The translations under genes and the position numbers were made by a program. Below the pieces are notes generated by a model. That model was not told the DNA's origin, made no database searches, and saw nothing but the letters and a program-made list of their open reading frames with translations. This document shows positions 16,617 through 41,471 of a stretch of 64,000 nt of DNA, piece after piece; the stretch's first letter is position 1, and each line of letters begins with the position of its first letter. This DNA is from a virus. The stretch lies in UHGV virus genome UHGV-0312702; one strand, 5' to 3'.

Positions 16617-16692
16617 TGGAGAATCCGAAGGGACTCGAACCCTTATAAACCTGTTTTGCAGACAGGCACATAGCCATTTCTGTCACGGATTC
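16617..16692 (-). tRNA. tRNA-Cys (anticodon GCA)
   Basis: Hand-folded cloverleaf: acceptor CGGATTC pairs with GAATCCG, T-loop TTCGAGT, anticodon loop CTGCAAA, CCA encoded. Confidence 0.75.
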
Positions 16693-16696
16693 AAAT

Positions 16697-16789
16697 TGGA
16701 GGAAGATACCAGACTTGAACTGGTACACCGATTTCTCAGCTACTGGCAGTTTAGCAAACTGCTCCCTTACCTTTTAGGGTTAATCTTCC
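16697..16789 (-). tRNA. tRNA-Ser (anticodon GCT), class II with long variable arm
   Basis: Acceptor GGAAGAT/ATCTTCC, anticodon stem GCAGT/ACTGC with loop TTGCTAA, long variable arm, T-loop TTCAAGT. Confidence 0.7.
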
Positions 16790-16790
16790 A

Positions 16791-17525
16791 TTATTTCTGT
16801 AATGCGCTCTTCATTTCTGGTGTTGCAATAGTGTCAATCACACCAGTTTTACAAGCATCATCAAACCAGTCTGGTAAGATACCTGCTAAGAACCCATTGA
16901 TATTCGTTTTAAGGTACTCTGCAATAAGGGCAGCTTCTTCTTCAATCATCTGCACAACTTCATCTGCATAAGCTGTAATCTTTGAGATACCTTCATTAAT
17001 CTTACTAACAGCCTGATTAGCTAAATCAGAAACAGTATCAAGACCCTTATCAATAGCATCTTGTAAGTCACTTAATACATCATTAACGCTGTCTAGTGTA
17101 TCATTAATAGCATCAATAGCTTTTTGACCATACTCTGTAGCAACACCCATAATACCGCTGAATGGTGTACAACCAACTTGTTCTCCCGCTGCACCCATAA
17201 CATTGGAATATCCCTTTGCTACCTGCATACGTGATGAAAACTCGTCAATAGACTTTTGACCGTAGTCTGTTAGGGTCTTAGTAGTTGCTGTAGTGCTTGT
17301 CAGACTCGTTGTAAAGCTGTTTAGAAGGACTGTTGTAAGTCCAGCAGCAACAAGTTTTTCCTTCATTGCAGGGTCTGTTACAGAGCTAATAGAGCTTACA
17401 AGTGATGTAGAGGCAGCTACGGTTCCACCTAGAACTGCTGCACCAGTAATAAGGGGGTTAGAAAACCCTTTACCAGTTTTTAAGAGATTAAAAATCTCCT
17501 TACCTTGTCCTGTCATCTCTTTCAT
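16791..17525 (-). CDS. hypothetical Ser/Thr-rich protein embedded in tRNA island, about 245 aa
   Basis: ORF-track start (17588, GTG) would overlap tRNA-Phe; first ATG that clears the tRNA is at 17525. Confidence 0.5.
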   Translation of the reverse strand: MKEMTGQGKEIFNLLKTGKGFSNPLITGAAVLGGTVAASTSLVSSISSVTDPAMKEKLVAAGLTTVLLNSFTTSLTSTTATTKTLTDYGQKSIDEFSSRMQVAKGYSNVMGAAGEQVGCTPFSGIMGVATEYGQKAIDAINDTLDSVNDVLSDLQDAIDKGLDTVSDLANQAVSKINEGISKITAYADEVVQMIEEEAALIAEYLKTNINGFLAGILPDWFDDACKTGVIDTIATPEMKSALQK

Positions 17526-17543
17526 TAAGCACCTTTGAAATTG

Positions 17544-17618
17544 GTAGTCCAGTGGGATTTGAACCCTCTTCTCATGTTTTTCAGACACGCGCTTTAACCA
17601 TATAAGCTACTTGGACTA
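17544..17618 (-). tRNA. tRNA-Phe (anticodon GAA)
   Basis: Acceptor TAGTCCA/TGGACTA, anticodon stem CGTGT/ACATG, loop CTGAAAA, T-loop TTCAAAT. Confidence 0.7.
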
Positions 17619-17623
17619 TAAAT

Positions 17624-17700
17624 TGGGGTGACCTACGGGATTTGAACCCGTATAGACCATGTTCACAGCATGGGTCATTACCATTTATGATAAGGCCACA
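17624..17700 (-). tRNA. tRNA-His (anticodon GTG)
   Basis: Anticodon stem CCATG/CATGG with loop CTGTGAA; discriminator C; CCA encoded. Confidence 0.7.
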
Positions 17701-17730
17701 TTTAAGGACTCTCGTAAGAACCCTTAGAAG

Positions 17731-17806
17731 TGGCAGCGGCATAAGGATTTGAACCTTAATAGGACAGCTTCAGAGACTGTTGCATTGCCAGTTATGCTAT
17801 ACCGCT
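17731..17806 (-). tRNA. tRNA-Gln (anticodon CTG)
   Basis: Acceptor AGCGGTA/TGCCGCT, anticodon loop CTCTGAA, T-loop present. Confidence 0.65.
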
Positions 17807-17811
17807 AAATT

Positions 17812-17890
17812 TGGTACTCCATATCGGATTCGAACCGATACATAACACAGATTTTAAGTCTGGCCTCTCTGCCAATTGGAGTAATGGAGC
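17812..17890 (-). tRNA. tRNA with leucine anticodon TAA but class I architecture (short variable loop)
   Basis: Acceptor GCTCCAT/ATGGAGT, D-arm CTCC-AATTGGCAG-AGAG, anticodon stem CCAGA/TCTGT loop CTTAAAA, 7-nt variable loop, T-arm ATCGG-TTCGAAT-CCGAT, discriminator A. Confidence 0.6.
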
Positions 17891-17892
17891 AT

Positions 17893-17968
17893 TGGCGGGG
17901 GATGTTGGAATTGAACCAACTTCTTCGATTTCAAAGACCGAGGTTTTAACCTTGTAAACTAATCCCCT
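17893..17968 (-). tRNA. tRNA-Gln (anticodon TTG)
   Basis: Anticodon stem TCGGT/ATCGA loop CTTTGAA; T-arm GTTGG-TTCAATT-CCAAC; A1-C72 mismatch. Confidence 0.65.
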
Positions 17969-17976
17969 TTAAATCT

Positions 17977-18534
17977 TTACTTTCTTAGTGGATGAATAAA
18001 GAATGCCAACATAACTCTTTCCCTTGAGAATGCTCTTTCTTCTGGGACAACACTTTTAAGTTTCCACCCAACATAAATTCTCCAGTAAAATTGTTTACCA
18101 AAGACTTTAATTGATGGGATAAAAGCAAATAATCCCCAAGCATTGCTGTTCCACATTAGGAGATAACCTGTCTGATTATCTTCAGGGTTAGAACTTACGT
18201 TGATATTACCTTTCCACTTAGTAACATCTTTTACATCTCTTCCTAACACATGGTAAGAGAAGTTATAAGCTTTGTTTCTCCAGAGCCATCCAACTCTCTG
18301 CATATAAACACCGAGCTTACCAATCTTTCTAATCTTAGCCCATCGTTTGATATGACCTGCATCACCATCAATTGGGTTGTCATAAGTCTCCATCCATCTG
18401 AAACCAAAAGGCAGATGACCTTTCTTCTCACTGTAGAATGGGACTACGAAAGGTGCTAAGATAACTGCCAAGATTGCTGCAAATGGCTCTAACAAAGCTA
18501 AGAAAATCCATGAAGCATACTTCAAATATCTCAT
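17977..18534 (-). CDS. hypothetical membrane protein embedded in tRNA island, 185 aa
   Basis: ORF with hydrophobic N-terminus (IFLALLEPFAAILAVILAPFVVPF). Confidence 0.5.
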   Translation of the reverse strand: MRYLKYASWIFLALLEPFAAILAVILAPFVVPFYSEKKGHLPFGFRWMETYDNPIDGDAGHIKRWAKIRKIGKLGVYMQRVGWLWRNKAYNFSYHVLGRDVKDVTKWKGNINVSSNPEDNQTGYLLMWNSNAWGLFAFIPSIKVFGKQFYWRIYVGWKLKSVVPEERAFSRERVMLAFFIHPLRK

Positions 18535-18773
18535 TGTCTAATCCTAGTAAGGAGGTAAACATTATTATTTGTTTCTGAGTTTTCTGGTAAAGCTGTCTCA
18601 AAATTGACGCTTTTAAATTGTCTCCCACCAAAGTAATGACCAATAAATTTTTGTACTTTTATTGGGTCACATTCCCAGCCAACTTTCAAGAAAATGTGGG
18701 TATCTATAGTGGGAACCCTTACAAACTCAATACTATTGGAATTTTCATGTTCAACGACGATTAATGTTTGCAT
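18531..18773 (-). CDS. hypothetical protein, 80 aa
   Basis: ORF overlapping the start of the downstream gene by 4 nt. Confidence 0.4.
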   Translation of the reverse strand: MQTLIVVEHENSNSIEFVRVPTIDTHIFLKVGWECDPIKVQKFIGHYFGGRQFKSVNFETALPENSETNNNVYLLTRIRQ

Positions 18774-18791
18774 AAATCTCTCTTATTTATC

Positions 18792-18867
18792 TGGCGCAGG
18801 ATAAGGGACTTGAACCCCTATTAACAGCTTCGTAGACTGTTGCTCTATCCATTTGAACTAATCCTGC
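18792..18867 (-). tRNA. tRNA-Arg (anticodon ACG)
   Basis: Acceptor GCAGGAT/ATCCTGC, anticodon loop CTACGAA, CCA encoded. Confidence 0.7.
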
Positions 18868-18872
18868 AAAAT

Positions 18873-18950
18873 TGGTGTTCCAAGACGGATTCGAACCGTC
18901 ACTAGTACAAGGTTTGAGCTTGCATCCTCTGCCAATTGGGATACTGGAAC
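18873..18950 (-). tRNA. tRNA with leucine anticodon CAA but class I architecture
   Basis: Acceptor GTTCCAG/TTGGAAC, D-arm TCCC-AATTGGCAG-AGGA, anticodon stem GCAAG/CTTGT loop CTCAAAC, 6-nt variable loop, T-arm GACGG-TTCGAAT-CCGTC; only 84 nt available between flanking tRNAs. Confidence 0.6.
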
Positions 18951-18951
18951 A

Positions 18952-19026
18952 TGGTACTCACTAAAGGACTTGAACCTTTTTCTTCATCTTGTAAGGGTGA
19001 TGTTTTACCATATAAACTAAGCGAGT
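18952..19026 (-). tRNA. tRNA-Val (anticodon TAC)
   Basis: Acceptor ACTCGCT/AGTGAGT, anticodon loop CTTACAA, T-arm AAAGG/CCTTT. Confidence 0.65.
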
Positions 19027-19122
19027 GTGAAAGAGGTCTGAAGTTGTGCCACTAACTCAACTCCGTGGAATTTGTTACGGTCTTCAGTTGACTCAAAGTG
19101 GTCTTTCACTTGACCTCTGAAT
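19027..19122 (-). ncRNA. candidate structured small RNA in tRNA-cluster spacer (not a tRNA)
   Basis: 96-nt spacer with complementary ends (AGAGGTC ... GACCTCT) and nested complementary segments (GTGAAAGA/TCTTTCAC, CTGAAG/CTTCAG); no T-loop motif. Confidence 0.3.
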
Positions 19123-19198
19123 TGGTGCTCCCACAAGGATTCGAACCCTGATAAGTTGCTTACAAGGCAACCGTAATAGCCAATTATACGATAGGAGC
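19123..19198 (-). tRNA. tRNA-Thr (anticodon TGT)
   Basis: Anticodon stem GTTGC/GCAAC with loop CTTGTAA; T-loop TTCGAAT. Confidence 0.7.
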
Positions 19199-19205
19199 AT
19201 TAATT

Positions 19206-19280
19206 TGGAGCATCCAGAGGGAATCGAACCCTCAACCTCAGTTTGGAAGACTGTAATTTTCCCGTTTAAACTATGGATGC
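19206..19280 (-). tRNA. tRNA-Gly (anticodon TCC)
   Basis: Acceptor GCATCCA/TGGATGC perfect 7 bp, anticodon loop CTTCCAA. Confidence 0.7.
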
Positions 19281-19286
19281 ACTAAT

Positions 19287-19362
19287 TGGTGGAGAAGCAG
19301 GGAATTGAACCCTGTACTTAAGTTTGCAAAACTTATGTTTTAACCATGTAAACTACATCCCC
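19287..19362 (-). tRNA. tRNA-Ala (anticodon TGC)
   Basis: Anticodon stem TAAGT/ACTTA loop TTTGCAA; G3-U70 wobble pair present (Ala identity element); T-arm CAGGG-TTCAATT-CCCTG. Confidence 0.7.
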
Positions 19363-19368
19363 AATGTT

Positions 19369-19444
19369 TGGTACAGGTGGAGGGAATTGAACCCATCGTC
19401 TTACTGATTAAGAGTCAGCCGCATAACCATTTTGCTACACCTGC
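19369..19444 (-). tRNA. tRNA-Lys (anticodon CTT)
   Basis: Acceptor GCAGGTG/CACCTGT, anticodon loop CTCTTAA. Confidence 0.65.
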
Positions 19445-19451
19445 ATTAATT

Positions 19452-19528
19452 TGGTACACCTAGAGAGATTCGAACTCACACTGAGCAGATTCTAAGTCTG
19501 CTGCCTCTACCAGTTGGGCTATAGGTGC
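19452..19528 (-). tRNA. tRNA with leucine anticodon TAG but class I architecture
   Basis: Acceptor GCACCTA/TAGGTGT, D-arm GCC-CAACTGGTAGA-GGC, anticodon stem GCAGA/TCTGC loop CTTAGAA, 5-nt variable loop. Confidence 0.6.
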
Positions 19529-19786
19529 ATTAAATCTTTTTAGAGAACTTCTAAGAACCTAAGCAACAAGGTTCCACAACAAGCTGTAATAACCTTAGAA
19601 GCCCTCTAAAAAGACCTAAAAAGGTCTTTGCATAGTCTTGTTTAATCCGGTGACTAGAACCTTTGGAGAGCTTGATATTATCTCTTCTCCGTGACACCTA
19701 CTAGGTGCTTTACTGTGCGTGTACGACAATACACGAGGGATACCAAAGCAACATCCGAATGAAGCTTGGCTTTAAATCTTATTAGG

Positions 19787-19874
19787 CGGTAAGTAAAGGA
19801 GTCGAACCCTCACCGTATCTCTACAGTGGCAACTGTTTTCAAGACAGTTTGGCTACCATTAGCCGCTACCTACC
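19787..19874 (-). tRNA. tRNA-Ser (anticodon TGA), class II
   Basis: 88 nt, acceptor GGTAGGT/ACTTACC, anticodon stem ACTGT/ACAGT loop CTTGAAA, long variable arm; CCA not encoded. Confidence 0.6.
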
Positions 19875-19887
19875 CCTAATAAGACTT

Positions 19888-19970
19888 TGGCATGGGACGG
19901 AGGAGTTGAACCCCTTTGAAACGGTTTTGGAGGCCGTTGCTCATGCCTTAGAGTCTTAACATCGTCCCAC
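19888..19970 (-). tRNA. tRNA-Trp (anticodon CCA), atypically long 5' half
   Basis: Acceptor GTGGGAC/GTCCCAT, anticodon loop CTCCAAA, T-arm GGGG-TTCAACT-CCTC; D-arm region about 7 nt longer than canonical. Confidence 0.5.
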
Positions 19971-20112
19971 ACTATAATTCGAAACTTACCGTATTATCTC
20001 AACACTGTAAAGCCCCTTCTCAGATTATTTACATGTTCTGGAAAACATGAGATACAGACCACCTCCCTACAGGAAGACCCGCTTAGGTCGTCTAAGTAAT
20101 CTGCTAACTAAT

Positions 20113-20189
20113 TGGCACACCCTACAGGATTCGAACCTGTAACTAACGATTTAGAAGACCGTTGCTCTATCCAATTGAACTAAGGGTGC
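20113..20189 (-). tRNA. tRNA-Arg (anticodon TCT)
   Basis: Anticodon stem ACGGT/ATCGT loop CTTCTAA; acceptor GCACCCT/AGGGTGT. Confidence 0.65.
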
Positions 20190-20526
20190 ATTAATCTTTA
20201 AAGACTCTCTTAGAAAGCCCTTAAAGATGCCCACCTTATTAATCATACCGTGGGCTAGTACGCCAAATTCTTTGATGAGGGATTGGAAGACCTCACTGGT
20301 GTTTAGCCTATCAAGCTACTGCCAGAAAAACATTGTCGTTTGCATTTATTTTAAATTTGCAAAATAGACGCTACGCAACGAAAACTATTCAGAATATGTA
20401 CAACAAATTTCCCCACATTGTGTTACGTCTAACGCTCATGTATTGGTGTTTGAATTATACATATTATGAATTATTTTTAGTTACTATAAAGTAGTCACAT
20501 CTCAATGTCAACAACTTTATTGAAAT

Positions 20527-20601
20527 TGGTTGTAGGTGAGGGTATCGAACCCTCTTCTAACGGTTATCAGCCGTTTGCATTACCATTTATGCTAACCCAC
20601 A
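20527..20601 (-). tRNA. tRNA-Ile (anticodon GAT)
   Basis: Anticodon stem AACGG/CCGTT loop CTGATAA; T-arm GAGGG-TTCGATA-CCCTC. Confidence 0.7.
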
Positions 20602-20602
20602 A

Positions 20603-20680
20603 TTGGAGGTTCAGGTGGGAATCGAACCCACATTCATAGGGCTTATGAAACCCCTGCATTACCTTATCTGCGACTGAACC
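20603..20680 (-). tRNA. tRNA-Met (anticodon CAT), elongator-like
   Basis: Perfect acceptor GGTTCAG/CTGAACC, anticodon stem GGGGT/GCCCT loop TTCATAA. Confidence 0.6.
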
Positions 20681-20684
20681 ATAT

Positions 20685-20760
20685 TGGTAGAAGTGGAGGG
20701 ATTCGAACCCATCGCCTGTCAGATTAAAAGTCTGCCGCATCACCATTCTGCTACACTTCC
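20685..20760 (-). tRNA. tRNA-Lys (anticodon TTT)
   Basis: Acceptor GGAAGTG/CACTTCT, anticodon loop CTTTTAA. Confidence 0.65.
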
Positions 20761-20909
20761 ATTAAATTATCTTTGTAGATAAGCTACCCAGACTTGCTTA
20801 AGGTCTGTAGCGATGTGCCTTGTTGGGTTTAAATCTAGAATTTACCCTTTCACCCTTTGTGGTCGCATACTCACAGGTAAGCTTAATAGCTCACCTACAA
20901 AGATAATTA

Positions 20910-21041
20910 CCAGACCGTTGTTTATCATCTTAAGTGCTACCATTACACCAACTCGACATCTGCCGAGTGAAGGAATCGAACCTTCGCCTTTTCTTTACCG
21001 GAGAAATAGATTGTTTAAGTTTTGCTGTAAACGGTCTTCTG
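20910..21041 (-). repeat. bounded spacer unit D (CCAGACC ... TGCTGTAAACGGTCTTCTG) containing a tRNA-like T-arm
   Basis: Shares both end motifs with units at 21055, 21484, 21637; contains GAAGG-AATCGAA-CCTTC (tRNA T-arm signature at 20969-20985) but no canonical anticodon loop or acceptor pairing. Confidence 0.5.
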
Positions 21042-21054
21042 TAAATTTGTTGAG

Positions 21055-21128
21055 CCAGACCAAGTTTTAAATTTTCAAAATTAAATTGGCTTGAAATTTC
21101 ATACATTCTTGCTGAATTTGGTCTTCTG
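21055..21128 (-). repeat. bounded spacer unit A (CCAGACC ... TGCTGAATTTGGTCTTCTG)
   Basis: Same terminal motifs as units B, C, D; the two ends are mutually complementary (AGACC/GGTCT). Confidence 0.5.
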
Positions 21129-21215
21129 CTCCTTTAAAGAATACTCGCAAGAACTCTTTAAGGGAGGGGCTAAATAGCCCTCTCAAAACATCATTTTGAA
21201 ATACTTATTATAATT

Positions 21216-21293
21216 TGGCGGTTACGAAGGGATTTGAACCCTCATCATCTCCCGTGACAGGGGAGTATTTTAACCAGATTAAACTACATAACC
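21216..21293 (-). tRNA. tRNA-Asp (anticodon GTC)
   Basis: Anticodon stem CTCCC/GGGAG loop CTGTCAC; acceptor GGTTATG/CGTAACC. Confidence 0.65.
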
Positions 21294-21298
21294 TTTAT

Positions 21299-21386
21299 TG
21301 GTGTGCCGTGTAGGAGTCGAACCTACCGAGTCTCAATGACAAGGGATTTACAGTCCCCACCGCTACCATCTACGGGATAACGACAC
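21299..21386 (-). tRNA. tRNA-Tyr (anticodon GTA), class II
   Basis: 88 nt; acceptor GTGTCGT/ACGGCAC, anticodon stem GGGA/TCCC loop CTGTAAA, long variable arm. Confidence 0.65.
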
Positions 21387-21395
21387 ATTTTAATT

Positions 21396-21472
21396 TGGCG
21401 GTTAGTCAGGGATTCGAACCCTGTGCCATTCGCTTAACAGGCGACCGCACATACCTTATGTGCTTCCTAACC
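21396..21472 (-). tRNA. tRNA-Asn (anticodon GTT)
   Basis: Anticodon loop CTGTTAA; T-arm CAGGG-TTCGAAT-CCCTG. Confidence 0.65.
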
Positions 21473-21483
21473 TTAATACATTG

Positions 21484-21542
21484 CCAGACCGTGTTTTTCT
21501 TTTATCCGCAAAAAGTAGTTTGTTGCTGAATACGGTCTTCTG
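21484..21542 (-). repeat. bounded spacer unit B (CCAGACC ... TGCTGAATACGGTCTTCTG)
   Basis: 59-nt unit between tRNA-Asn and the second CAT tRNA with the same end motifs. Confidence 0.5.
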
Positions 21543-21548
21543 CAAAAT

Positions 21549-21625
21549 TGGAGGCGGGTGCAGGAGTCGAACCTGCCGATACCATGCTAATGAGACATGT
21601 GAGACGCCCTTTCTCTATACCCGCA
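21549..21625 (-). tRNA. tRNA with anticodon CAT, second copy (initiator Met or Ile-lysidine type), atypical
   Basis: Anticodon stem CATGT/GCATG loop CTCATTA (pyrimidine at 37); acceptor pairs only with a 1-72 mismatch or a 1-nt register shift; D-stem GAGA/TCTC. Confidence 0.5.
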
Positions 21626-21636
21626 ATTCTTAATGA

Positions 21637-21709
21637 CCAGACCAAATCTCTTCTTTGTCCGATTGAATGTCAGATGAATAAGATTAAATTTGCTGTAATT
21701 GGTCTTCTG
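21637..21709 (-). repeat. bounded spacer unit C (CCAGACC ... TGCTGTAATTGGTCTTCTG)
   Basis: 73-nt unit between the CAT tRNA and tRNA-Glu with the same end motifs. Confidence 0.5.
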
Positions 21710-21716
21710 TCAAAAC

Positions 21717-21791
21717 TGGTGTCGTAGACAGGATTCGAACCTGCGAGCAACTGATTGAAGGTCAGGTGGCTAACCATTTGCCTTCTACGAC
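21717..21791 (-). tRNA. tRNA-Glu (anticodon TTC), C at position 33
   Basis: Perfect acceptor GTCGTAG/CTACGAC, anticodon stem CTGA/TCAG with loop CCTTCAA. Confidence 0.55.
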
Positions 21792-21792
21792 A

Positions 21793-22149
21793 TTAAACCA
21801 TTGTAATTCCACTATGAACCTCTCTGTGGCAATTAGCGCATAGCAAAACACATTTATCAAGTTCTTTTTTAACCTTTTCCCAAGATGCACCCATAAGTTT
21901 TGATGGTGTATTCTCTTTTTCGTTTGGGTTAAGGTGATGCCATTCTAAAGCATTTTTACATTTATTATAGCCACAAATTATGCAACTATCGCCATAAAGC
22001 TTATATGCTTTCTCCCTATTGGCATCCTCTCTAAGTTTTGTCCTTAATGCACAACATTTTAGACAATTTACTCTATTACCGGCGTTACCATTCTTATGAA
22101 TGCTATGTTCAGTTAAACCATGAACTGGACATTCTTTTAAAAATCTCAT
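21793..22149 (-). CDS. HNH homing endonuclease, about 118 aa
   Basis: Cys-rich zinc-finger region plus HNH motif (EWHHLNP ... LLCANCHREVH); ORF-track start at 22227 overlaps tRNA-Pro, so the start is placed at the ATG at 22149. Confidence 0.7.
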   Translation of the reverse strand: MRFLKECPVHGLTEHSIHKNGNAGNRVNCLKCCALRTKLREDANREKAYKLYGDSCIICGYNKCKNALEWHHLNPNEKENTPSKLMGASWEKVKKELDKCVLLCANCHREVHSGITMV

Positions 22150-22166
22150 AGTAACCCCTTTAAATT

Positions 22167-22243
22167 TGGTCTCTGTTGGAGGACTTGAACCTCCGGCCTT
22201 ACCGCCCCAAACGGAACGCTCTACCAAGCTGAGCTAAACAGAG
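22167..22243 (-). tRNA. tRNA-Pro (anticodon TGG)
   Basis: Perfect acceptor CTCTGTT/AACAGAG, D-arm GCTC-AGCTTGGTA-GAGC, anticodon loop TTTGGGG, T-arm GGAGG-TTCAAGT-CCTCC. Confidence 0.75.
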
Positions 22244-32099: not shown

Positions 32100-32850
32100 T
32101 TTTAACAAACTTAACAGGAATATCTTCACAGACCTTATCTCACAAGGTCTAACACGGTACTAACAAGGTATCTTATAAGCCTGTTTCTACCTGTATTTTT
32201 AAAAGACTGTCTAGGTAATTATTCAGAATTTTAAAATTTTTATAAAATAGGACTATCAAGTCATTTTTTAGGGTCTTTGAAGGAACTGAAAAATATCTGT
32301 CTAGGATGTATATCTGCTTGGTAGCCCTTAACATCCCTGTAACATCCCCTTTGCAGAATTTTAAAATATCCTTAACAATCTCTTAACAGCTCTTACATCT
32401 TCTTAACATCTCTTCAGAGGTCTTAACAGATTCTTAACAGAACTAACAAGGATGTAACAAGTTCTTAACAGTCGATACATAGGCTTTACAGAGTCTTAAC
32501 AGATGACTAACAAGAGCTAACAAGTTAATTTTTAAGAGTTATTTTGTTAAGATAATTAACAAGTTTCTAACAAGTGTTTAATCTTTTTAACAAGCTATTA
32601 ACATGGTCACTACTCTTTTCTTATCGTTCCCTCTACCTTCTTAGTGATTCTCTAAACATACCTCTTAAAAGCTCTCTATAGCTACTTATAAGCCCTTTTA
32701 AGCCTCTTCCTAGTAACTACACCCCAACTATACAGACACCTATTTATAGAGCTTTACAGGAGCTTTTAAGGCTATGCCAAAGGTTCTTACAAGTCTTTTA
32801 CGTGGTCTTAACAGAGATTTAACAAGGGGCTAACAAGTTGCTAACAAGTG
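32100..32850. repeat. iteron-like array, more than 20 copies of CTTAACAG / CTAACAAG / TTAACAAG
   Basis: Copies at about 10-11 bp phasing (for example tcttaacaga-ttcttaacag-aactaacaagg at 32421-32451; gctaacaagttgctaacaagtg at 32829-32850); no ORF of 60 aa or more on either strand in 31733-33389. Confidence 0.6.
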
Positions 32851-33325
32851 CCTTAAAAGCATAACTATGTAGGGATTGTTAAGAAATTGTTAAGAAAATG
32901 TTAAGGGGGCTAGCATTTACGTAACTTTATAGCCTCTTTTACGTAACTTTTAAGCTACTTCAGAGTAACTTTATAGCCCCTATAACATACTTTTTAGTGA
33001 CTATCAAGGGGATTGTTTAACTATTCACAAGATACTAACGAGATAATAAAGCTCATAACCTTATAAGATTCTTTTAAGCCTCTATAAAGCCCTGTAAAGA
33101 GCTTTTAAGGGTGAGTTAATGCAATCCCTTAAGTTAGATTGATAAGGCTGTTATAGCGCTTTATAGAGCGTTTAAACGGTTGCCCTTCCCTTTCGGGTTA
33201 TGGGCTTATATTTAAGTTGATTTGATAAGGGGCTATAGAGTAAGCTATAGAGTTATTACTTTTAAGGTATGAGATAGATTCTATCGAATCAGTGGGAAAG
33301 ATTCTGGGAAGGGATTGGATAGACG

Positions 33326-33638: not shown

Positions 33639-33705
33639 AATTTAGATTCTCCAGTTTAGGACTTTATTTAGTGGGAAGGTTAATCCCTCCCCGTTGATTA
33701 GTAAT

Positions 33706-33969
33706 TTACTGCATGTTGGCGTATGTTGCAAGCCTTTTTTCGTTGTATTTTGTCAGAATCTCACAAGATAAAACATCATATTTTGTAACCGCTTTGCCTT
33801 TGTCGAGGTCAAAGAATCCGAACGCTTTACCGTCTTTGAATCCGACAACCTCGTAAGACTCTTTGATGATTTCACCATTGAACAAATCACTTTCGATACG
33901 GTGGAATAGTGCTACATCCTCTTTGTCGGATGCAATTTGTAAAAGTGTGGTCAGTTCGACGTGTTCCAT
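33706..33969 (-). CDS. hypothetical protein, 87 aa
   Basis: ORF preceded by conserved leader cassette. Confidence 0.45.
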   Translation of the reverse strand: MEHVELTTLLQIASDKEDVALFHRIESDLFNGEIIKESYEVVGFKDGKAFGFFDLDKGKAVTKYDVLSCEILTKYNEKRLATYANMQ

Positions 33970-34030
33970 TTTGAATCTCCAGTTTAGGATTTTATTTAGT
34001 GGGGGAGGTCATCCCCCGTTGATTGACAAT

Positions 34031-35513: not shown

Positions 35514-36077
35514 TTAACCTAAAAAGTCTTTTAAATTGCGCTCTGTGATGTTTGCCGTGATTTTATCCAGCAAGTCACAAAACACGGAACTATCACCGCT
35601 ATTCTGTACAATTTTCGCCATACTTAACAAATCATCGTCAACATAGCCTAAATTGCGGTTAGTTGCATCTGGTACAAAGAAAGGTGCATACATCGCACTA
35701 AATTTCGTCGAGTGAAGGCCAATAATCCAATTTTTATCAAAGTGTCCGGTAAAGCTGGCGATATCGCTCATGTTGTCACAAGAATAATCATCCTCTAGCT
35801 CTTCCTCTGGGATATCCATCTCAATGACAATTACGTCCTGCGTTTCCATTTGGAAAGCTGCCGTAATAAGCCCAGATTCTAAAGCGTTTTGAATGCAGCG
35901 TTCACGAATGTAAGAATCTTCCTCATCTTCCAGACATTCCGTTTTGATAATCTTGTTCATTGGGTAAACGTAGAAACAATCATCCATGTAGGAGCAGTTC
36001 CAGATTCCTTCTGGCTTGTCACCACCATTCAGCAAGTTTACAAAGTTTTTGAGGGTAGTGCCGTGATAGCATTTCAT
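35514..36077 (-). CDS. hypothetical highly acidic protein, 187 aa
   Basis: ORF; Asp/Glu-rich (for example DIPEEELEDDYSCDNMSD). Confidence 0.5.
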   Translation of the reverse strand: MKCYHGTTLKNFVNLLNGGDKPEGIWNCSYMDDCFYVYPMNKIIKTECLEDEEDSYIRERCIQNALESGLITAAFQMETQDVIVIEMDIPEEELEDDYSCDNMSDIASFTGHFDKNWIIGLHSTKFSAMYAPFFVPDATNRNLGYVDDDLLSMAKIVQNSGDSSVFCDLLDKITANITERNLKDFLG

Positions 36078-36078
36078 T

Positions 36079-36162
36079 TTTGAATCTCCAGTTTAGGATT
36101 TAGTGGTAAAGCTCTTTATCTGGGGCTTAAGATATCAACTTTTAAGCCCCCTGTAAAGTACT
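36079..36162 (-). promoter_or_regulatory. conserved leader cassette, family A
   Basis: About 85-nt element repeated almost verbatim at 36412-36503, 37210-37295, 39071-39158, 39417-39502, 39884-39972: 9-bp hairpin GGGGCTTAA...TTAAGCCCC, CACTAAATCC box, TAAACTGGAGATTCAAAA then ATG. Confidence 0.55.
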
Positions 36163-36411
36163 TTATTTAACTTTCTTTGAGAAAATTAGTTTAACTGCAA
36201 CCGTAGGAATCTCGTCAGCGCTTGTAACCAGCATTACTTTTTGGGTAACCAACTTATAACCGTTCTTTGCAGCATATGCGGTAAAACGGTTAACATTGTA
36301 ACTATAAGTTTTTGGTGTGCTATCTGGCATGTGGTAAAGAAAAGGTTTACCCAAATTTTCTTCTTGTGTCAACAGTCGGCAGGTATCAGGGATATTGAAA
36401 TAGTTCATCAT
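36163..36411 (-). CDS. hypothetical protein, 82 aa
   Basis: ORF preceded by family A cassette. Confidence 0.45.
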   Translation of the reverse strand: MMNYFNIPDTCRLLTQEENLGKPFLYHMPDSTPKTYSYNVNRFTAYAAKNGYKLVTQKVMLVTSADEIPTVAVKLIFSKKVK

Positions 36412-36503
36412 TTTTGAATCTCCAGTTTAGGATTTAGTGGTAAAGCTCTTTATCTGGGGCTTAAGATATCAACTTTTAAGCCCCCTGTAAAGTACTTTAT
36501 CAG
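36412..36503 (-). promoter_or_regulatory. conserved leader cassette, family A copy
   Basis: Near-identical to 36079-36162. Confidence 0.55.
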
Positions 36504-37209: not shown

Positions 37210-37295
37210 TTTTTAGTTCTCCAATTTAGGATTTAGTGGTAAAGCTCTTTATCTGGGGCTTACTTTATCGAACTATAAGCCCCTTGTAAAGTACT

Positions 37296-37568
37296 TTATA
37301 CTAAATGCAGCTTTTTACCTTTTACTATGATGTAACTAGATGCGCTATTGCTGCATACATCTTGGTAAATTCTGCGCAAACGCCCTTCATAGTGTACTTT
37401 CCAACTGGTTGGAATCTTTTTCCCGTATCCTGTAGCAGTTTTTTGGAGTCCTGCAACTTGCCAATCCAAAATGTGCTGTTCAGCTTGTAAATCCTCGAAG
37501 TGCATTACACCGTTCACATAGTGGCGTAGGGTTACGTTTAAAGTGCGACCGTTGTTAGTAGTGTACAT
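37296..37568 (-). CDS. hypothetical protein, about 90 aa
   Basis: Start moved from 37610 to the ATG at 37568, which has the conserved RBS context. Confidence 0.4.
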   Translation of the reverse strand: MYTTNNGRTLNVTLRHYVNGVMHFEDLQAEQHILDWQVAGLQKTATGYGKKIPTSWKVHYEGRLRRIYQDVCSNSASSYIIVKGKKLHLV

Positions 37569-38464: not shown

Positions 38465-38557
38465 TTTAGAATCTCCTAGTTTAAGGGCTTTATTTTGATA
38501 AATCTTTTTATCTGGGGCTATCCTACCAGCTTGATAACCCCGTGTAAAGAAATCTAT

Positions 38558-39070
38558 TTAGTTCTTAAAGATATTCATCACTGAGTCTTTCAACGATTCC
38601 AAACGTTCTAATACTTCAGTTTCTGCGTCTGAATTGCTCACCTCTTCTTTTAGTCTATCCTCTAAATCATCACCGTCACGATAGCACCAATCGAAAGCAT
38701 AACCAAGATAAAAACTTTCTAAAACCGTGTTACCGTTTGCATCCACAACTTTCGCGGCAAGGTTGTACTCTGAAGCCTCTAAATCTCTTTCTAGTTCTTT
38801 CTGTAAGCTGGTGTAAGCCTCTTTTGATGGATTTTCCCGACCTTGTTTTGCATAGTCACTAGAAAGCTGTTTAAGGCTGTAATGTAAAGGGATTGCATAT
38901 TTAAACTCATTATGCTGATGGTTAGGATTTTTAATAGTTACACCGCCTTGATGGTCATCTGTAAACTGCCAATTATCAAGGTTATGGCTTGCTTCAAAGC
39001 AATTAACAGCCTCATAGATGATAGAAAATTTTTCTTTTACAACTTCAAAGGTAGCGTCTACAGTTTTCAT
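38558..39070 (-). CDS. hypothetical acidic protein, 170 aa
   Basis: ORF preceded by family A cassette. Confidence 0.5.
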   Translation of the reverse strand: MKTVDATFEVVKEKFSIIYEAVNCFEASHNLDNWQFTDDHQGGVTIKNPNHQHNEFKYAIPLHYSLKQLSSDYAKQGRENPSKEAYTSLQKELERDLEASEYNLAAKVVDANGNTVLESFYLGYAFDWCYRDGDDLEDRLKEEVSNSDAETEVLERLESLKDSVMNIFKN

Positions 39071-39158
39071 TTTTGAATCTCCAGTTTAGGATTTAGTGGT
39101 AAAGCTCTTTATCTGGGGCTTAAGATATCAACTTTTAAGCCCCCTGTAAAGTACTTTA
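39071..39158 (-). promoter_or_regulatory. conserved leader cassette, family A copy
   Basis: Near-identical to 36412-36503. Confidence 0.55.
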
Positions 39159-39416: not shown

Positions 39417-39502
39417 TTTTAAGTTCTCCAATTTAGGATTGAGTGGTAAAGTTCTTTATCTGGGGCTTACTTTATCGAACTATAAGCCCCTTGTAAAGTA
39501 CT

Positions 39503-39883
39503 TTATTTAATTTTGAAAATTGTTACATAACCATCACTACCGATTATTTGAGACACTCCAGCTTTTTCTACTTGATAGCCCATATTTTCAAGATGATAAA
39601 CAGCATCATCATAACCATATGCGCCGCCTTGATAACGTCTCTTATCACATCTTACTAATACCTTTCCACGTCCAGCAAGTGCATTCAGTACAGCTTTTTC
39701 ACTTGAGAGTGTGCCATCTAACATGGTTGCCGTGTAATGGTTGATTCTATTCCCGTTAATATCATACTTAAAATTGAATGCGTGAACAACAATCAATTTG
39801 CCGTTAAATTTTTCATCAAGTGACTTCTCCAGTGCGTTGCGGAAGTTGTCTTTGTTGATGAATTTTGGTGCACGATAAGCCAT
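39503..39883 (-). CDS. hypothetical protein, 126 aa
   Basis: ORF preceded by family A cassette. Confidence 0.5.
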   Translation of the reverse strand: MAYRAPKFINKDNFRNALEKSLDEKFNGKLIVVHAFNFKYDINGNRINHYTATMLDGTLSSEKAVLNALAGRGKVLVRCDKRRYQGGAYGYDDAVYHLENMGYQVEKAGVSQIIGSDGYVTIFKIK

Positions 39884-39972
39884 TTTGAATCTCCTAGTTT
39901 AAGGGTTAATTTAGTAAAGCTCTTTATCTGGGGCTTAAGATATCAGCTTTTAAGCCCCCTGTAAAGTACTTT

Positions 39973-40179
39973 TTATTTATCGTAGTAGTAAATTGCTGTC
40001 TGTCTTGTAAACTTCTTAGTGTTTATTGTAAGGTAGCAATTAGAATTAATAGCCGTTTCTACATAGTTGCAATAGTCAGCTTCTGAAATTCTACGCCATG
40101 CGCCGCACACTTGCATGTAAAAACGTTTTACATTTGTATTAACGTTGGTTGTAACCATCAATTCACGACTGTAAAGCAT
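39973..40179 (-). CDS. hypothetical Cys-containing protein, 68 aa
   Basis: First gene after the candidate promoter at 40229-40257. Confidence 0.4.
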   Translation of the reverse strand: MLYSRELMVTTNVNTNVKRFYMQVCGAWRRISEADYCNYVETAINSNCYLTINTKKFTRQTAIYYYDK

Positions 40180-40228
40180 TTTTGATTCTCCAGTTTAGGA
40201 AGTGGGCTTGATTGCCCGTCTGATGCAA

Positions 40229-40257
40229 ATATTAGATAACCATACTCAAAGAGTCAA
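40229..40257 (-). promoter_or_regulatory. candidate sigma70-type promoter driving the small-gene array
   Basis: On - strand TTGACT, 17-nt spacer, TAATAT, about 45 nt upstream of the ATG at 40179. Confidence 0.45.
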
Positions 40258-40429
40258 TAGGAATTTTAAAAATATTTTTGCAAAAATTGTAATGAAACGG
40301 GCGCATGCGACTACCACAAAACAGAACTACAATCAAGAATTATTTTTCAATCCGCTACAAATTTTTCTGTTGACTTTTATTTCCAGATGTGGTAGCCTTG
40401 TGAGAAATGGCGACATCCCCACCTGTACC

Positions 40430-40630
40430 CACCTACCTGCACAATTCTAAAATGATTTTTCTTGCCCGACCTGAGCGGGGTCTGCACGTTTTGAAAATGA
40501 AAAAGCTCTTTGGAGATTACCTGCACAGTTTGAAAATGAATTTTCTCTTTGGAGTTCAAAATTTTCTCTACAGATTTCTGTCCAGAACTCTACCTGCACA
40601 ATCCTGAAATGAAAAAGCCCTCCTTACCTG
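40430..40630. repeat. tandem direct repeats (ACCTGCACAnTTnnAAAATGA...CTCTTTGGAG), about 4 copies
   Basis: Copies at about 40435, 40481, 40518, 40591 in a 500-nt ORF-free interval. Confidence 0.5.
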
Positions 40631-40685
40631 AAAAATTTACCAGATAAAAAAGGCTTAGTCTATTGTGAATATCTTACAGATTTTC

Positions 40686-41471
40686 TTAGTTCTTTGCGTC
40701 TAAGAAGGTAACTTCTGATGATGAGAAAATTTCCTCAACATCCTCATCAGTTCTTGCATAGATATATGTATCTGCATCACTGCCAAATGTTACTGCAATC
40801 CTGTGATTGTTCTTTGACAGGTGGGTAACTAGAGCGTTACTCAGAGACATCTTTTCAACCGGAGGGTTACTTTGATGTATCTTACCTTTTCTTCGTCTGA
40901 AGAGGGTAACTGTATTGTCTGTGAACGTTACTACACCTGCAAAGTATTCTGGTTCACAGTAGTTCTTCCAACCTGAGCGTAACTTGTGGTACATCTCTCC
41001 TTCATAGACATACAGATACACATCTACACTCTTCATCACCTGATTAATGATAACTGTGACGGCTTGAGGGTCAAGCCCACCGATACCTGCACCAATCATA
41101 GGTAACCCGACTTTCTTCAACTGATTGACTTCACAGTATCTGTTAAGCTGTTTCAAAGATGACTCTAAAGCACTGTATCGGGCATCTTTACCAGTCTTAA
41201 GCTGAGTGTAAAGGTTAGCTATACGGCCTTGTTTTAAACGTGCTACAGAGAAATTACCTAGTAGATTTTCACAGGGTTTGTTGCCTATACCACCTGCATA
41301 CAGATAGACTTCTGTATCAGTTTCATATGCTTTTGGGTAAAATTTAGAAATCTTGTCAGCAATACCTGCACCCATTAAATTCATACAGTTGCAGCCATGA
41401 CCAATGATATCAAATTTACCTTTATCAAATGCGTCAAAAATACTACCATTGATGATTTTTACAATACCCAT
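40686..41471 (-). CDS. macro-domain-like protein (putative ADP-ribose binding/processing), 261 aa
   Basis: N-terminal IVKIINGSIFDAF ... DIIGHGCNCMNLMGAGIA resembles the macro-domain Gly-rich ADP-ribose-binding motif; assignment from motif memory only. Confidence 0.45.
   Translation of the reverse strand: MGIVKIINGSIFDAFDKGKFDIIGHGCNCMNLMGAGIADKISKFYPKAYETDTEVYLYAGGIGNKPCENLLGNFSVARLKQGRIANLYTQLKTGKDARYSALESSLKQLNRYCEVNQLKKVGLPMIGAGIGGLDPQAVTVIINQVMKSVDVYLYVYEGEMYHKLRSGWKNYCEPEYFAGVVTFTDNTVTLFRRRKGKIHQSNPPVEKMSLSNALVTHLSKNNHRIAVTFGSDADTYIYARTDEDVEEIFSSSEVTFLDAKN

Follow-up and report, generated by a model that had tools for sequence, protein, structure and literature searches.

Iteron origins, among them the ori of phage lambda and those of plasmids F, P1, R6K and pSC101, carry several repeats of about 20 bp in the same orientation at a unique non-coding site. 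An A+T-rich stretch, a strand-asymmetric purine/pyrimidine tract and a promoter adjoin the repeats, and the number of copies varies between relatives. Here we describe an array of direct repeats with a layout that recalls these origins in the virus genome UHGV-0312702, of which a stretch of 64,000 nucleotides (hereafter the window) was analysed. The array lies in a non-coding gap at 40180-40685, between a macro-domain gene and a gene of 68 codons. BLAST against phage records placed the window in the genus Felixounavirus, subfamily Ounavirinae, and over the 861 bases spanning the array and its surroundings the identity to many Felix O1-group phages of E. coli and Salmonella was 93-96%. Among Salmonella and E. 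coli phages, Felix O1 and its relatives belong to those most widely employed in typing, biocontrol and therapy. We propose that the gap is a conserved non-coding control region, in which the repeats would act as double-stranded DNA in the manner of an iteron-like protein-binding array. On the comparisons of sequence given below, we put the probability of this reading at about one half.

The array consists of four direct repeats, all in one orientation on the minus strand, with extended copies at 40434-40462, 40482-40515, 40518-40554 and 40591-40627. A profile built from 76 related units mapped the cores to 40595-40612 (unit 1, TCATTTCAGGATTGTGCA, 26.2 bits), 40522-40539 (unit 2, TCATTTTCAAACTGTGCA, 27.8 bits), 40483-40500 (unit 3, TCATTTTCAAAACGTGCA, 29.0 bits) and 40438-40455 (unit 4, TCATTTTAGAATTGTGCA, 24.3 bits), each on the minus strand. 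In the 64-kb window, as in the whole 87.1-kb Bas63 genome, the profile matched only at four sites, with 24-30 bits, and the next best match scored 8.7 bits. A 22-nt form of the repeat pattern gave 3 matches against 0.05 expected by chance. The copies are imperfect, with 65-86% identity over 29-34 nt, and share an 18-nt invariant core, TCATTT-N7-GTGCA, around which conservation extends up to 26 nt. The consensus of about 26 bp reads G-N-WWWW-TCATTTY-N6-GTGCA-KR, and the unit as it stands on the minus strand has the form WWWW-TCATTTY-N6-GTGCA-(GG)TAG. Iteron arrays are recognised by at least three direct repeats of ~17-22 bp in the same orientation at one locus, and four units with an 18-nt core were found here. 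The units are spaced 45, 39 and 73 nt apart in the window. The last of these distances, between units 1 and 2, is of double length because a degenerate partial unit sits between them (40560-40578, minus strand), which retains the 5' flank GAAATCTGTAGAGAAAATT without a core and is 79% identical to the flank of unit 2 (repeat family D7).

These results can be set against the initial annotation of the interval, which had described four copies at about 40435, 40481, 40518 and 40591 in a gap downstream of the macro-domain gene. The gene coordinates confirmed the gap, with minus-strand genes on both flanks, and the copies were found where they had been placed. The description of the unit itself held for the number of copies and failed for its CTCTTTGGAG part, which occurs in only two of the four. 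The annotation had further suggested a search for the unit elsewhere in the genome, which returned the four sites already given, and had named absence of the repeats from homologous regions of relatives, together with the lack of a transcription start in the interval, as what would speak against it. Such absence of the repeats was not seen, since the repeats were present at every Ounavirinae locus examined.

We compared 84 arrays drawn from GenBank, IMG/VR and metagenomes. Downstream of the macro-domain gene, three to five copies in the same orientation were found in Felixounavirus, Suspvirus, Mooglevirus and the Erwinia-infecting Kolesnikvirus, as well as in a distant relative, and in all four genera the macro-domain gene is followed by a gap of ~460-530 nt. 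The order and orientation of the units were identical at every Ounavirinae locus examined. Most arrays have four copies, and those of the Si3/finno type have three. Among 95 distinct units, TCATTT and GTGCA varied little or not at all, unlike the N6 spacer and the flanks, and the four bases 5' of the core were either all A or all T. The arrays of the Erwinia phages keep a regular period of 37/37/39 nt, and the ancestral period was therefore probably ~37-39 nt. The distant relative is an 88-kb metagenomic genome (IMGVR_UViG_3300045988_063805, hereafter L096) with a macro protein 36% identical to that of the window. It carries at least five units of the form AAAAWTCATTTY-N6-GTGCATAGG downstream of its macro gene, and the remainder of its gap is unrelated. 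In L096 a gap of ~800 nt follows a short macro gene (300-1300), with the units in two clusters. The array there gives way directly to a TTAACA-rich region similar in sequence to the Felixounavirus terminal repeat, after which comes a sigma70-like promoter. When identity was measured in a sliding window across 16 divergent genomes, it reached 0.88-0.98 in the repeats and in an invariant block of the gap, compared with 0.62-0.85 in the flanking coding sequence. Because identity in the gap exceeds that of the coding sequence beside it, and because the element is retained at the same spot, the alignments indicate that it is under purifying selection at the level of its primary sequence.

Several properties of the array argue that the repeats are recognised as DNA. 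The motif is bipartite and asymmetric, and its two strictly conserved core blocks lie one helical turn apart; it tolerates A- or T-tracts next to the core; its copy number and spacing vary; it is unique in the genome; and no signal of RNA structure was detected. Folding energy showed no excess over shuffled sequence on either strand (z = -1.1 and +0.5), no covariation was found outside the terminator described below, and a search of Rfam returned no match at E <= 10, ToxI included. The interchange of A-tract and T-tract points to DNA recognition, because the two are equivalent in DNA shape and not in RNA. We suggest that the array would present four asymmetric sites of ~26 bp, each bound by one molecule of a sequence-specific protein that could be phage-encoded or supplied by the host. 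A protein-binding cis element, which is the broader idea behind the operators suggested in the initial annotation, is still the best reading of the repeats.

Read along the minus strand, the gap contains a terminator, the four repeats, a variable tract, a block of ~80 nt, an A+T-rich stretch, a promoter and a leader, and the array is thus placed behind the terminator that closes the rIIA-to-macro operon. The variable tract (40380-40433, minus strand), delimited by alignment with relatives, has in the window the G-rich allele GGTAGGTGGGTACAGGTGGGGATG..., which is also present in some relatives, while many others carry the C-rich tract CCCCTCTCCCCCTCTTACTCCCCCTCCCCCC. Two alleles of opposite strand skew therefore segregate within the genus at this position. 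Felix O1 has the C-rich form (L005, 1330-1430), in genomes of only 38-39% G+C. A motif of four C-runs, which corresponds to a canonical G-quadruplex on the opposite (antisense) strand, was found in 17 of 41 related gaps and not in the window. The block that follows (AAAAGTCAACAGAAAAATTTGTAGCGGATTGAAAAATAATTCTTGA...TGTTTTGTGGTAGTCGC, 40299-40378, minus strand) is nearly invariant, being almost unchanged in Felixounavirus, Suspvirus and Mooglevirus with a column identity of 0.85-0.98, and the alignment of relatives showed neither compensatory pairs nor covariation within it. Base composition defines an A+T-rich stretch directly upstream of the -35 hexamer (40258-40293, minus strand). Its segment 40262-40291 is 90% A+T and ranks in the top 0.03% of 30-nt windows in the 64-kb stretch. 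It lies ~150 nt from the last repeat unit, and could be an easily unwound segment or, equally, an UP-element-like part of the promoter.

The promoter itself, TTGACT-17-TAATAT, was found at 40257-40229 on the minus strand. The initial annotation had it following the repeats, as it does, and the orientation is corrected here in that genes, repeats and promoter are all read on the minus strand. It had also been called the best in the window, which is not so: it agrees with the consensus at 9 of 12 positions, and the window contains 47 sites with a closer match. The promoter is credible because it is conserved between genera, not because of its match to the consensus. All ten aligned sequences keep TTGAC unchanged, the -10 hexamer reads TAnTAT in the nine from Felixounavirus, Suspvirus and Mooglevirus, and the Erwinia phages have TTGACT-17-TATATT at the equivalent place. 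Judged by its hexamers, a spacing within 16-18 nt and conservation, the site qualifies as a predicted sigma70 promoter. It heads a cluster of small early-type genes and would drive these together with the 68-aa gene.

Whether the array belongs to a replication origin is a more tentative matter. We consider it possible, though we would not presume it, that the repeats form a replication origin or a site that assists initiation. This guess derives from the layout, since a purine/pyrimidine-skewed tract, an extreme A+T stretch and a host-type promoter are arranged in this way in several phage and plasmid origins. Copy number and spacing also vary between lineages, as they do for iterons, which suggests an origin-type module. 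The array, the G/C tract, the invariant block and the A+T promoter region might then together constitute the replication origin of the Felix O1 group, or some other cis site for genome handling, at which a phage protein would recognise the new bipartite motif TCATTTY-N6-GTGCA; we offer this as a tentative model. Such an origin would be of the type "iterons + unwinding region + activating promoter" and, like the T4 origins, dispensable in laboratory conditions. T4 oriF and oriG and the primary origin of T7 likewise combine an intergenic promoter with an easily unwound A+T element and can be dispensable, which would be in line with the PhageMaP data given below, but these origins have no iteron array.

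A number of observations weigh against the iteron-like reading. PhageMaP reported the region ~46,000-66,000 of Bas63 as uniformly non-essential on four laboratory hosts, and the gap, at 64,064-64,571 of that genome, falls inside this range, so that the array segment would be dispensable there, in contrast to iteron origins. This speaks against a sole indispensable origin, whereas a dispensable one is compatible with the result, and a single insertion may be unable to inactivate the array. The spacing of the array also differs from that of iterons. It is 37-45 nt against a typical ~22 nt, with differences of 2 nt between genera, and the units do not keep helical phase. The window contains no pairs of DnaA boxes. 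None of the neighbouring proteins of the gap has a recognisable DNA-binding domain. GC skew does not switch at the gap and follows the direction of transcription, which makes it uninformative. Finally, unit 1 overlaps the tail of the terminator, which leaves room for descent of the repeats from duplicated terminator sequence or for a role of readthrough RNA.

DnaA boxes were also considered as the identity of the units. Those of the Erwinia phages and of L096 (TGTGCATAG) match 8 of 9 positions of TGTGNATAA, and the match is broken in Felixounavirus by an insertion of GG (TGTGCAGGTA); the candidate was not adopted. A comparison of the units with sigma54, T4 middle and late promoters, CRP, IHF, Fis, Fur, LexA, OmpR and the UP element, made by eye only, gave no convincing conserved match. 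Nor is the motif a general promoter, since no further copies exist in the genome.

The terminator bears on more than one of the alternatives. It was identified by terminator scan at 40605-40656 on the minus strand as the intrinsic terminator of the macro-gene operon, with a hairpin of 17 pairs at 40656-40615 and the tail CTTTTTCATTT, and it corresponds to terminator t13 of Felix O1 (PMC3185647). RNAalifold recovered 13 pairs from 10 divergent relatives, two of them with compensatory double changes. Many positions of the stem switch between G-U and G-C, so that pairing is possible only in the minus-strand RNA. Given its hairpin, its U-tract and the pairing maintained in relatives, the predicted terminator is genuine as far as sequence can tell. 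In every lineage the 5' half of repeat unit 1 is also the U-tract of this terminator, the T-run at the 5' end of that unit serving both.

Of the other explanations, the one that survives best is that the repeats act as RNA. Readthrough or antisense transcripts would then display four single-stranded UCAUUU...GUGCA motifs as a decoy or sponge for an RNA-binding protein or nuclease, like type III antitoxin repeats or pseudo-ToxI. The ancestral period of ~37-39 nt resembles that of type III antitoxin repeats (34-45 nt), a macro-domain gene and the array stand side by side in a dispensable "toolbox" segment, and E. coli and Salmonella often carry ToxIN plasmids. The Erwinia phages have a strong antisense sigma70-like site aimed into the array, which in phage M7 is TTGACG-18-TATACT with 10 of 12 consensus positions (L006, 1791-1820). 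Felixounavirus has a conserved antisense TTGACT at a comparable position (window 40371-40376), with a weak -10. The array shares with ToxI and pseudo-ToxI a tandem period of ~36-39 nt, occurrence in an enterobacterial phage and the short strings GTGCAG.TAGA and GAAA(A)TTCA. A possible ToxI mimic, GTGCAGCTAGAAATTCA, was examined after the ToxI sequence had been verified against pECA1039. In 74 of 500 shuffles the alignment score was reached, which puts the likeness at chance, and the local alignment with ToxI was no better than that of other tiles of the window. The array units are imperfect, whereas antitoxin arrays are homogenised, and the layout of promoter, repeats, terminator and toxin is absent, the order being reversed. 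The array lies behind a strong terminator, without a sense-strand promoter of its own and with no toxin gene after it.

No host counterpart was found: BLAST of E. coli genomes and plasmids, and a pattern scan for two units across 185,579 species, each represented by one genome, returned no similar array and nothing related in Enterobacterales, so that a host-derived array was rejected as well. The matches obtained were unrelated satellites and coding repeats. The A-tract/T-tract interchange 5' of the core is hard to square with one RNA motif, and conservation this extreme is unusual for decoys in an arms race. We regard an RNA decoy as unlikely. The small non-coding RNA that the initial annotation had offered as an alternative is not supported either, given the position downstream of a strong terminator, the missing promoter and the Rfam, folding and covariation results above.

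A further idea is that the array is a transcription boundary. The repeats would be back-up termination or pause signals derived from duplicated terminator tails and, together with a C-rich tract in many relatives on which Rho would load, would insulate the cluster of small early genes. In all lineages a validated terminator has unit 1 as its U-tract, which fits this idea, as does the occurrence of the same CTTTTTCATTT tail after terminator t5 of Felix O1 (PMC3185647). The flanks of the units resemble the 3' arm of the terminator stem, and the C-rich tract makes a promising rut (Rho-loading) candidate, but it is replaced in the allele of the window. Units 2-4 have no conserved hairpin, half of the units have A-runs in place of T-runs, and the invariant GTGCA, located 3' of the T-run, plays no part in intrinsic termination. 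A transcription boundary of this kind seems to us rather improbable.

The repeats might instead control the promoter at 40257-40229 from a distance, as enhancer-like or repressor-loading sites in a switch from early to middle transcription. The promoter always shares a gap with the repeats, their order never changes, and the promoter is conserved. However, the last unit lies ~180 nt from the -35 hexamer in the window and up to ~300 nt from it in L096, the intervening sequences being unrelated, and the units are asymmetric, not dyad-symmetric. We consider long-range control of this type, in effect a looser version of the operators in the initial annotation, a poor prospect. The regulated early promoter with tandem operators of the initial annotation can be judged on the same grounds. 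Its promoter part stands, with conservation across genera, an UP-like flank and an early-type gene cluster. Its operators are not supported in that form: the units lie ~180-400 nt upstream of the -35 hexamer at a distance that varies between genera, and none overlaps the promoter. Asymmetry and a distance this long and variable do not fit operators that occlude a promoter.

The last alternative is a DNA-entry or genome-end cis site, analogous to the injection stop signal region (Repeat Region 3) of phage T5 (bioRxiv 10.1101/866236). The T5 signal, at 7.9% of the genome, is likewise non-coding, rich in repeats and more conserved than its neighbours, and in both phages the conserved non-coding repeats stand at ~8-9% of the genome length from one terminus, next to small early genes with host-type promoters, and are followed by a G-rich tract and then a TTGAC-type promoter. 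The gap described here lies ~7.5-8.3 kb from the right physical end, or ~9% of the genome, when the end is mapped through the 581-bp terminal repeats of Pr103Blw. It borders a cluster of small single-gene cassettes, and in L096 the array adjoins the TTAACA-rich region, of the kind that marks terminal repeats. The likeness to T5 is architectural only, and the idea is very improbable: the T5 region is ~1.2 kb long, has palindromes and paired DnaA boxes and lies within a 10-kb terminal repeat, whereas here the terminal repeat has 581 bp and is 7-8 kb off, counterparts of A1 and A2 are missing, the segment is reported as non-essential (PhageMaP), and the comparison with T5 revealed no sequence similarity beyond chance. 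The neighbouring cluster consists of small ORFs only, with no large A1-like gene, the distance to the end varies from ~0 to 8 kb, and the window has none of the DnaA box pairs. We know of no report of two-step DNA transfer in Felix O1-type phages.

A terminal repeat or packaging site within the gap was considered separately, as several metagenome contigs and one GenBank record end inside it. These ends coincide with the C-rich tract and were attributed to breaks in assembly or sequencing. The C-rich tract appears to break Illumina assemblies. Two IMG/VR contigs from sample 3300045988 (L026 and L027) end at the identical base within it, and one of them continues into a Nextera adapter. The PhageTerm-derived 581-bp terminal repeats of Pr103Blw map to 32,320-32,910 of the window, 7.5-8.3 kb downstream of the array. 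This segment (window 32320-32910) represents a collapsed 581-bp direct terminal repeat, and is dense in TTAACA / TGTTAA(G) repeats, many of them spaced by 11 nt. The same class of repeats also marks equivalent unannotated gaps of 1.6 kb in Bas63 and Moogle.

The gap had been called free of open reading frames. In a strict sense it is not, as six mechanical ORFs of 32-82 aa are listed, but all of them are broken in other genera: they fragment or gain stops in wV8, Mooglevirus or Kolesnikvirus, while the flanking genes used as controls align from end to end, and no conserved ORF was found. GenBank records place hypothetical proteins over the repeats on either strand (Felix O1 ORF31-34, wV8 gp013, bas63_0096/0097, Moogle115 and Sf13 gp58), and PhageMaP scored two hypothetical proteins of the gap as genes. 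The hypothetical proteins annotated across the gap are probably false gene calls, because they are not conserved between genera. Mini-ORFs were also examined, namely hexapeptides started by AUU on the sense strand and peptides started by ATG on the antisense strand, and were rejected, as their frames are not conserved between genera.

All genes surrounding the gap are on the minus strand. The macro-domain gene (40686-41471, minus strand) matches the Pfam family Macro with E = 6e-8 and is labelled "phosphatase" in PHROGs. The protein has a C-terminal extension of ~110 residues without a Pfam match (window 40686-41000). The macro protein of L096 apparently has no such extension, as its alignment covers only the first ~160 residues and its frame stops there. 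On the other flank, the 68-codon gene (39973-40179, minus strand) is preceded by a 5' leader at 40180-40228 on the same strand, with a small hairpin GGGCAATCAAGCCC and the ribosome-binding region ACTGGAGAATCAAAAATG, which was recognised by its recurrence in the phage. The near-identical translation-initiation region ACTGGAGAATCAAAAATG is common to several small genes, at 40177-40200, 39068-39091, 36409-36432, 36075-36098, 33969-33989 and 33641-33661. Between the small genes there is in addition a dispersed repeat of ~60 nt (39914-39972, 39099-39157, 39446-39509, 38482-38549, 37239-37300, 36440-36498 and 36106-36169). It contains a promoter of the type TTTACA-17-TATCTT with a GGGGCTTAA...TTAAGCCCC hairpin within the spacer, so that promoter and terminator are coupled. 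Its counterparts in Felix O1 are the "57-bp direct repeats", and in wV8 the DR features. Elsewhere in the window, 25 tRNA genes are clustered at 16617-22243 on the minus strand, a typical feature of Felix O1-like phages.

The terminator has already been published (PMC3185647), while the array, the invariant block and their conservation throughout the subfamily are not mentioned in the genome papers of Felix O1 or wV8. The literature searched contained no report of any of these, and no work on a transcriptome, an origin or iterons in these phages; the 2010 genome paper of Felix O1 stated that the regulation of transcription was unknown (PMC3185647). The gap is among the best-conserved stretches of the early region, yet public records leave it blank or fill it with hypothetical ORFs that are not conserved. 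For phage engineers, it is a place to avoid, or to exploit, when a payload is inserted. If the element were dispensable under all conditions, one would still have to explain why it is conserved beyond the level of the flanking genes. Should the repeats prove to be bound by a protein, they would provide a handle for finding the protein that binds them and could locate an origin or a control switch, and the array would gain in interest if these widely applied phages turned out to have their origin, or a new control site, in it.

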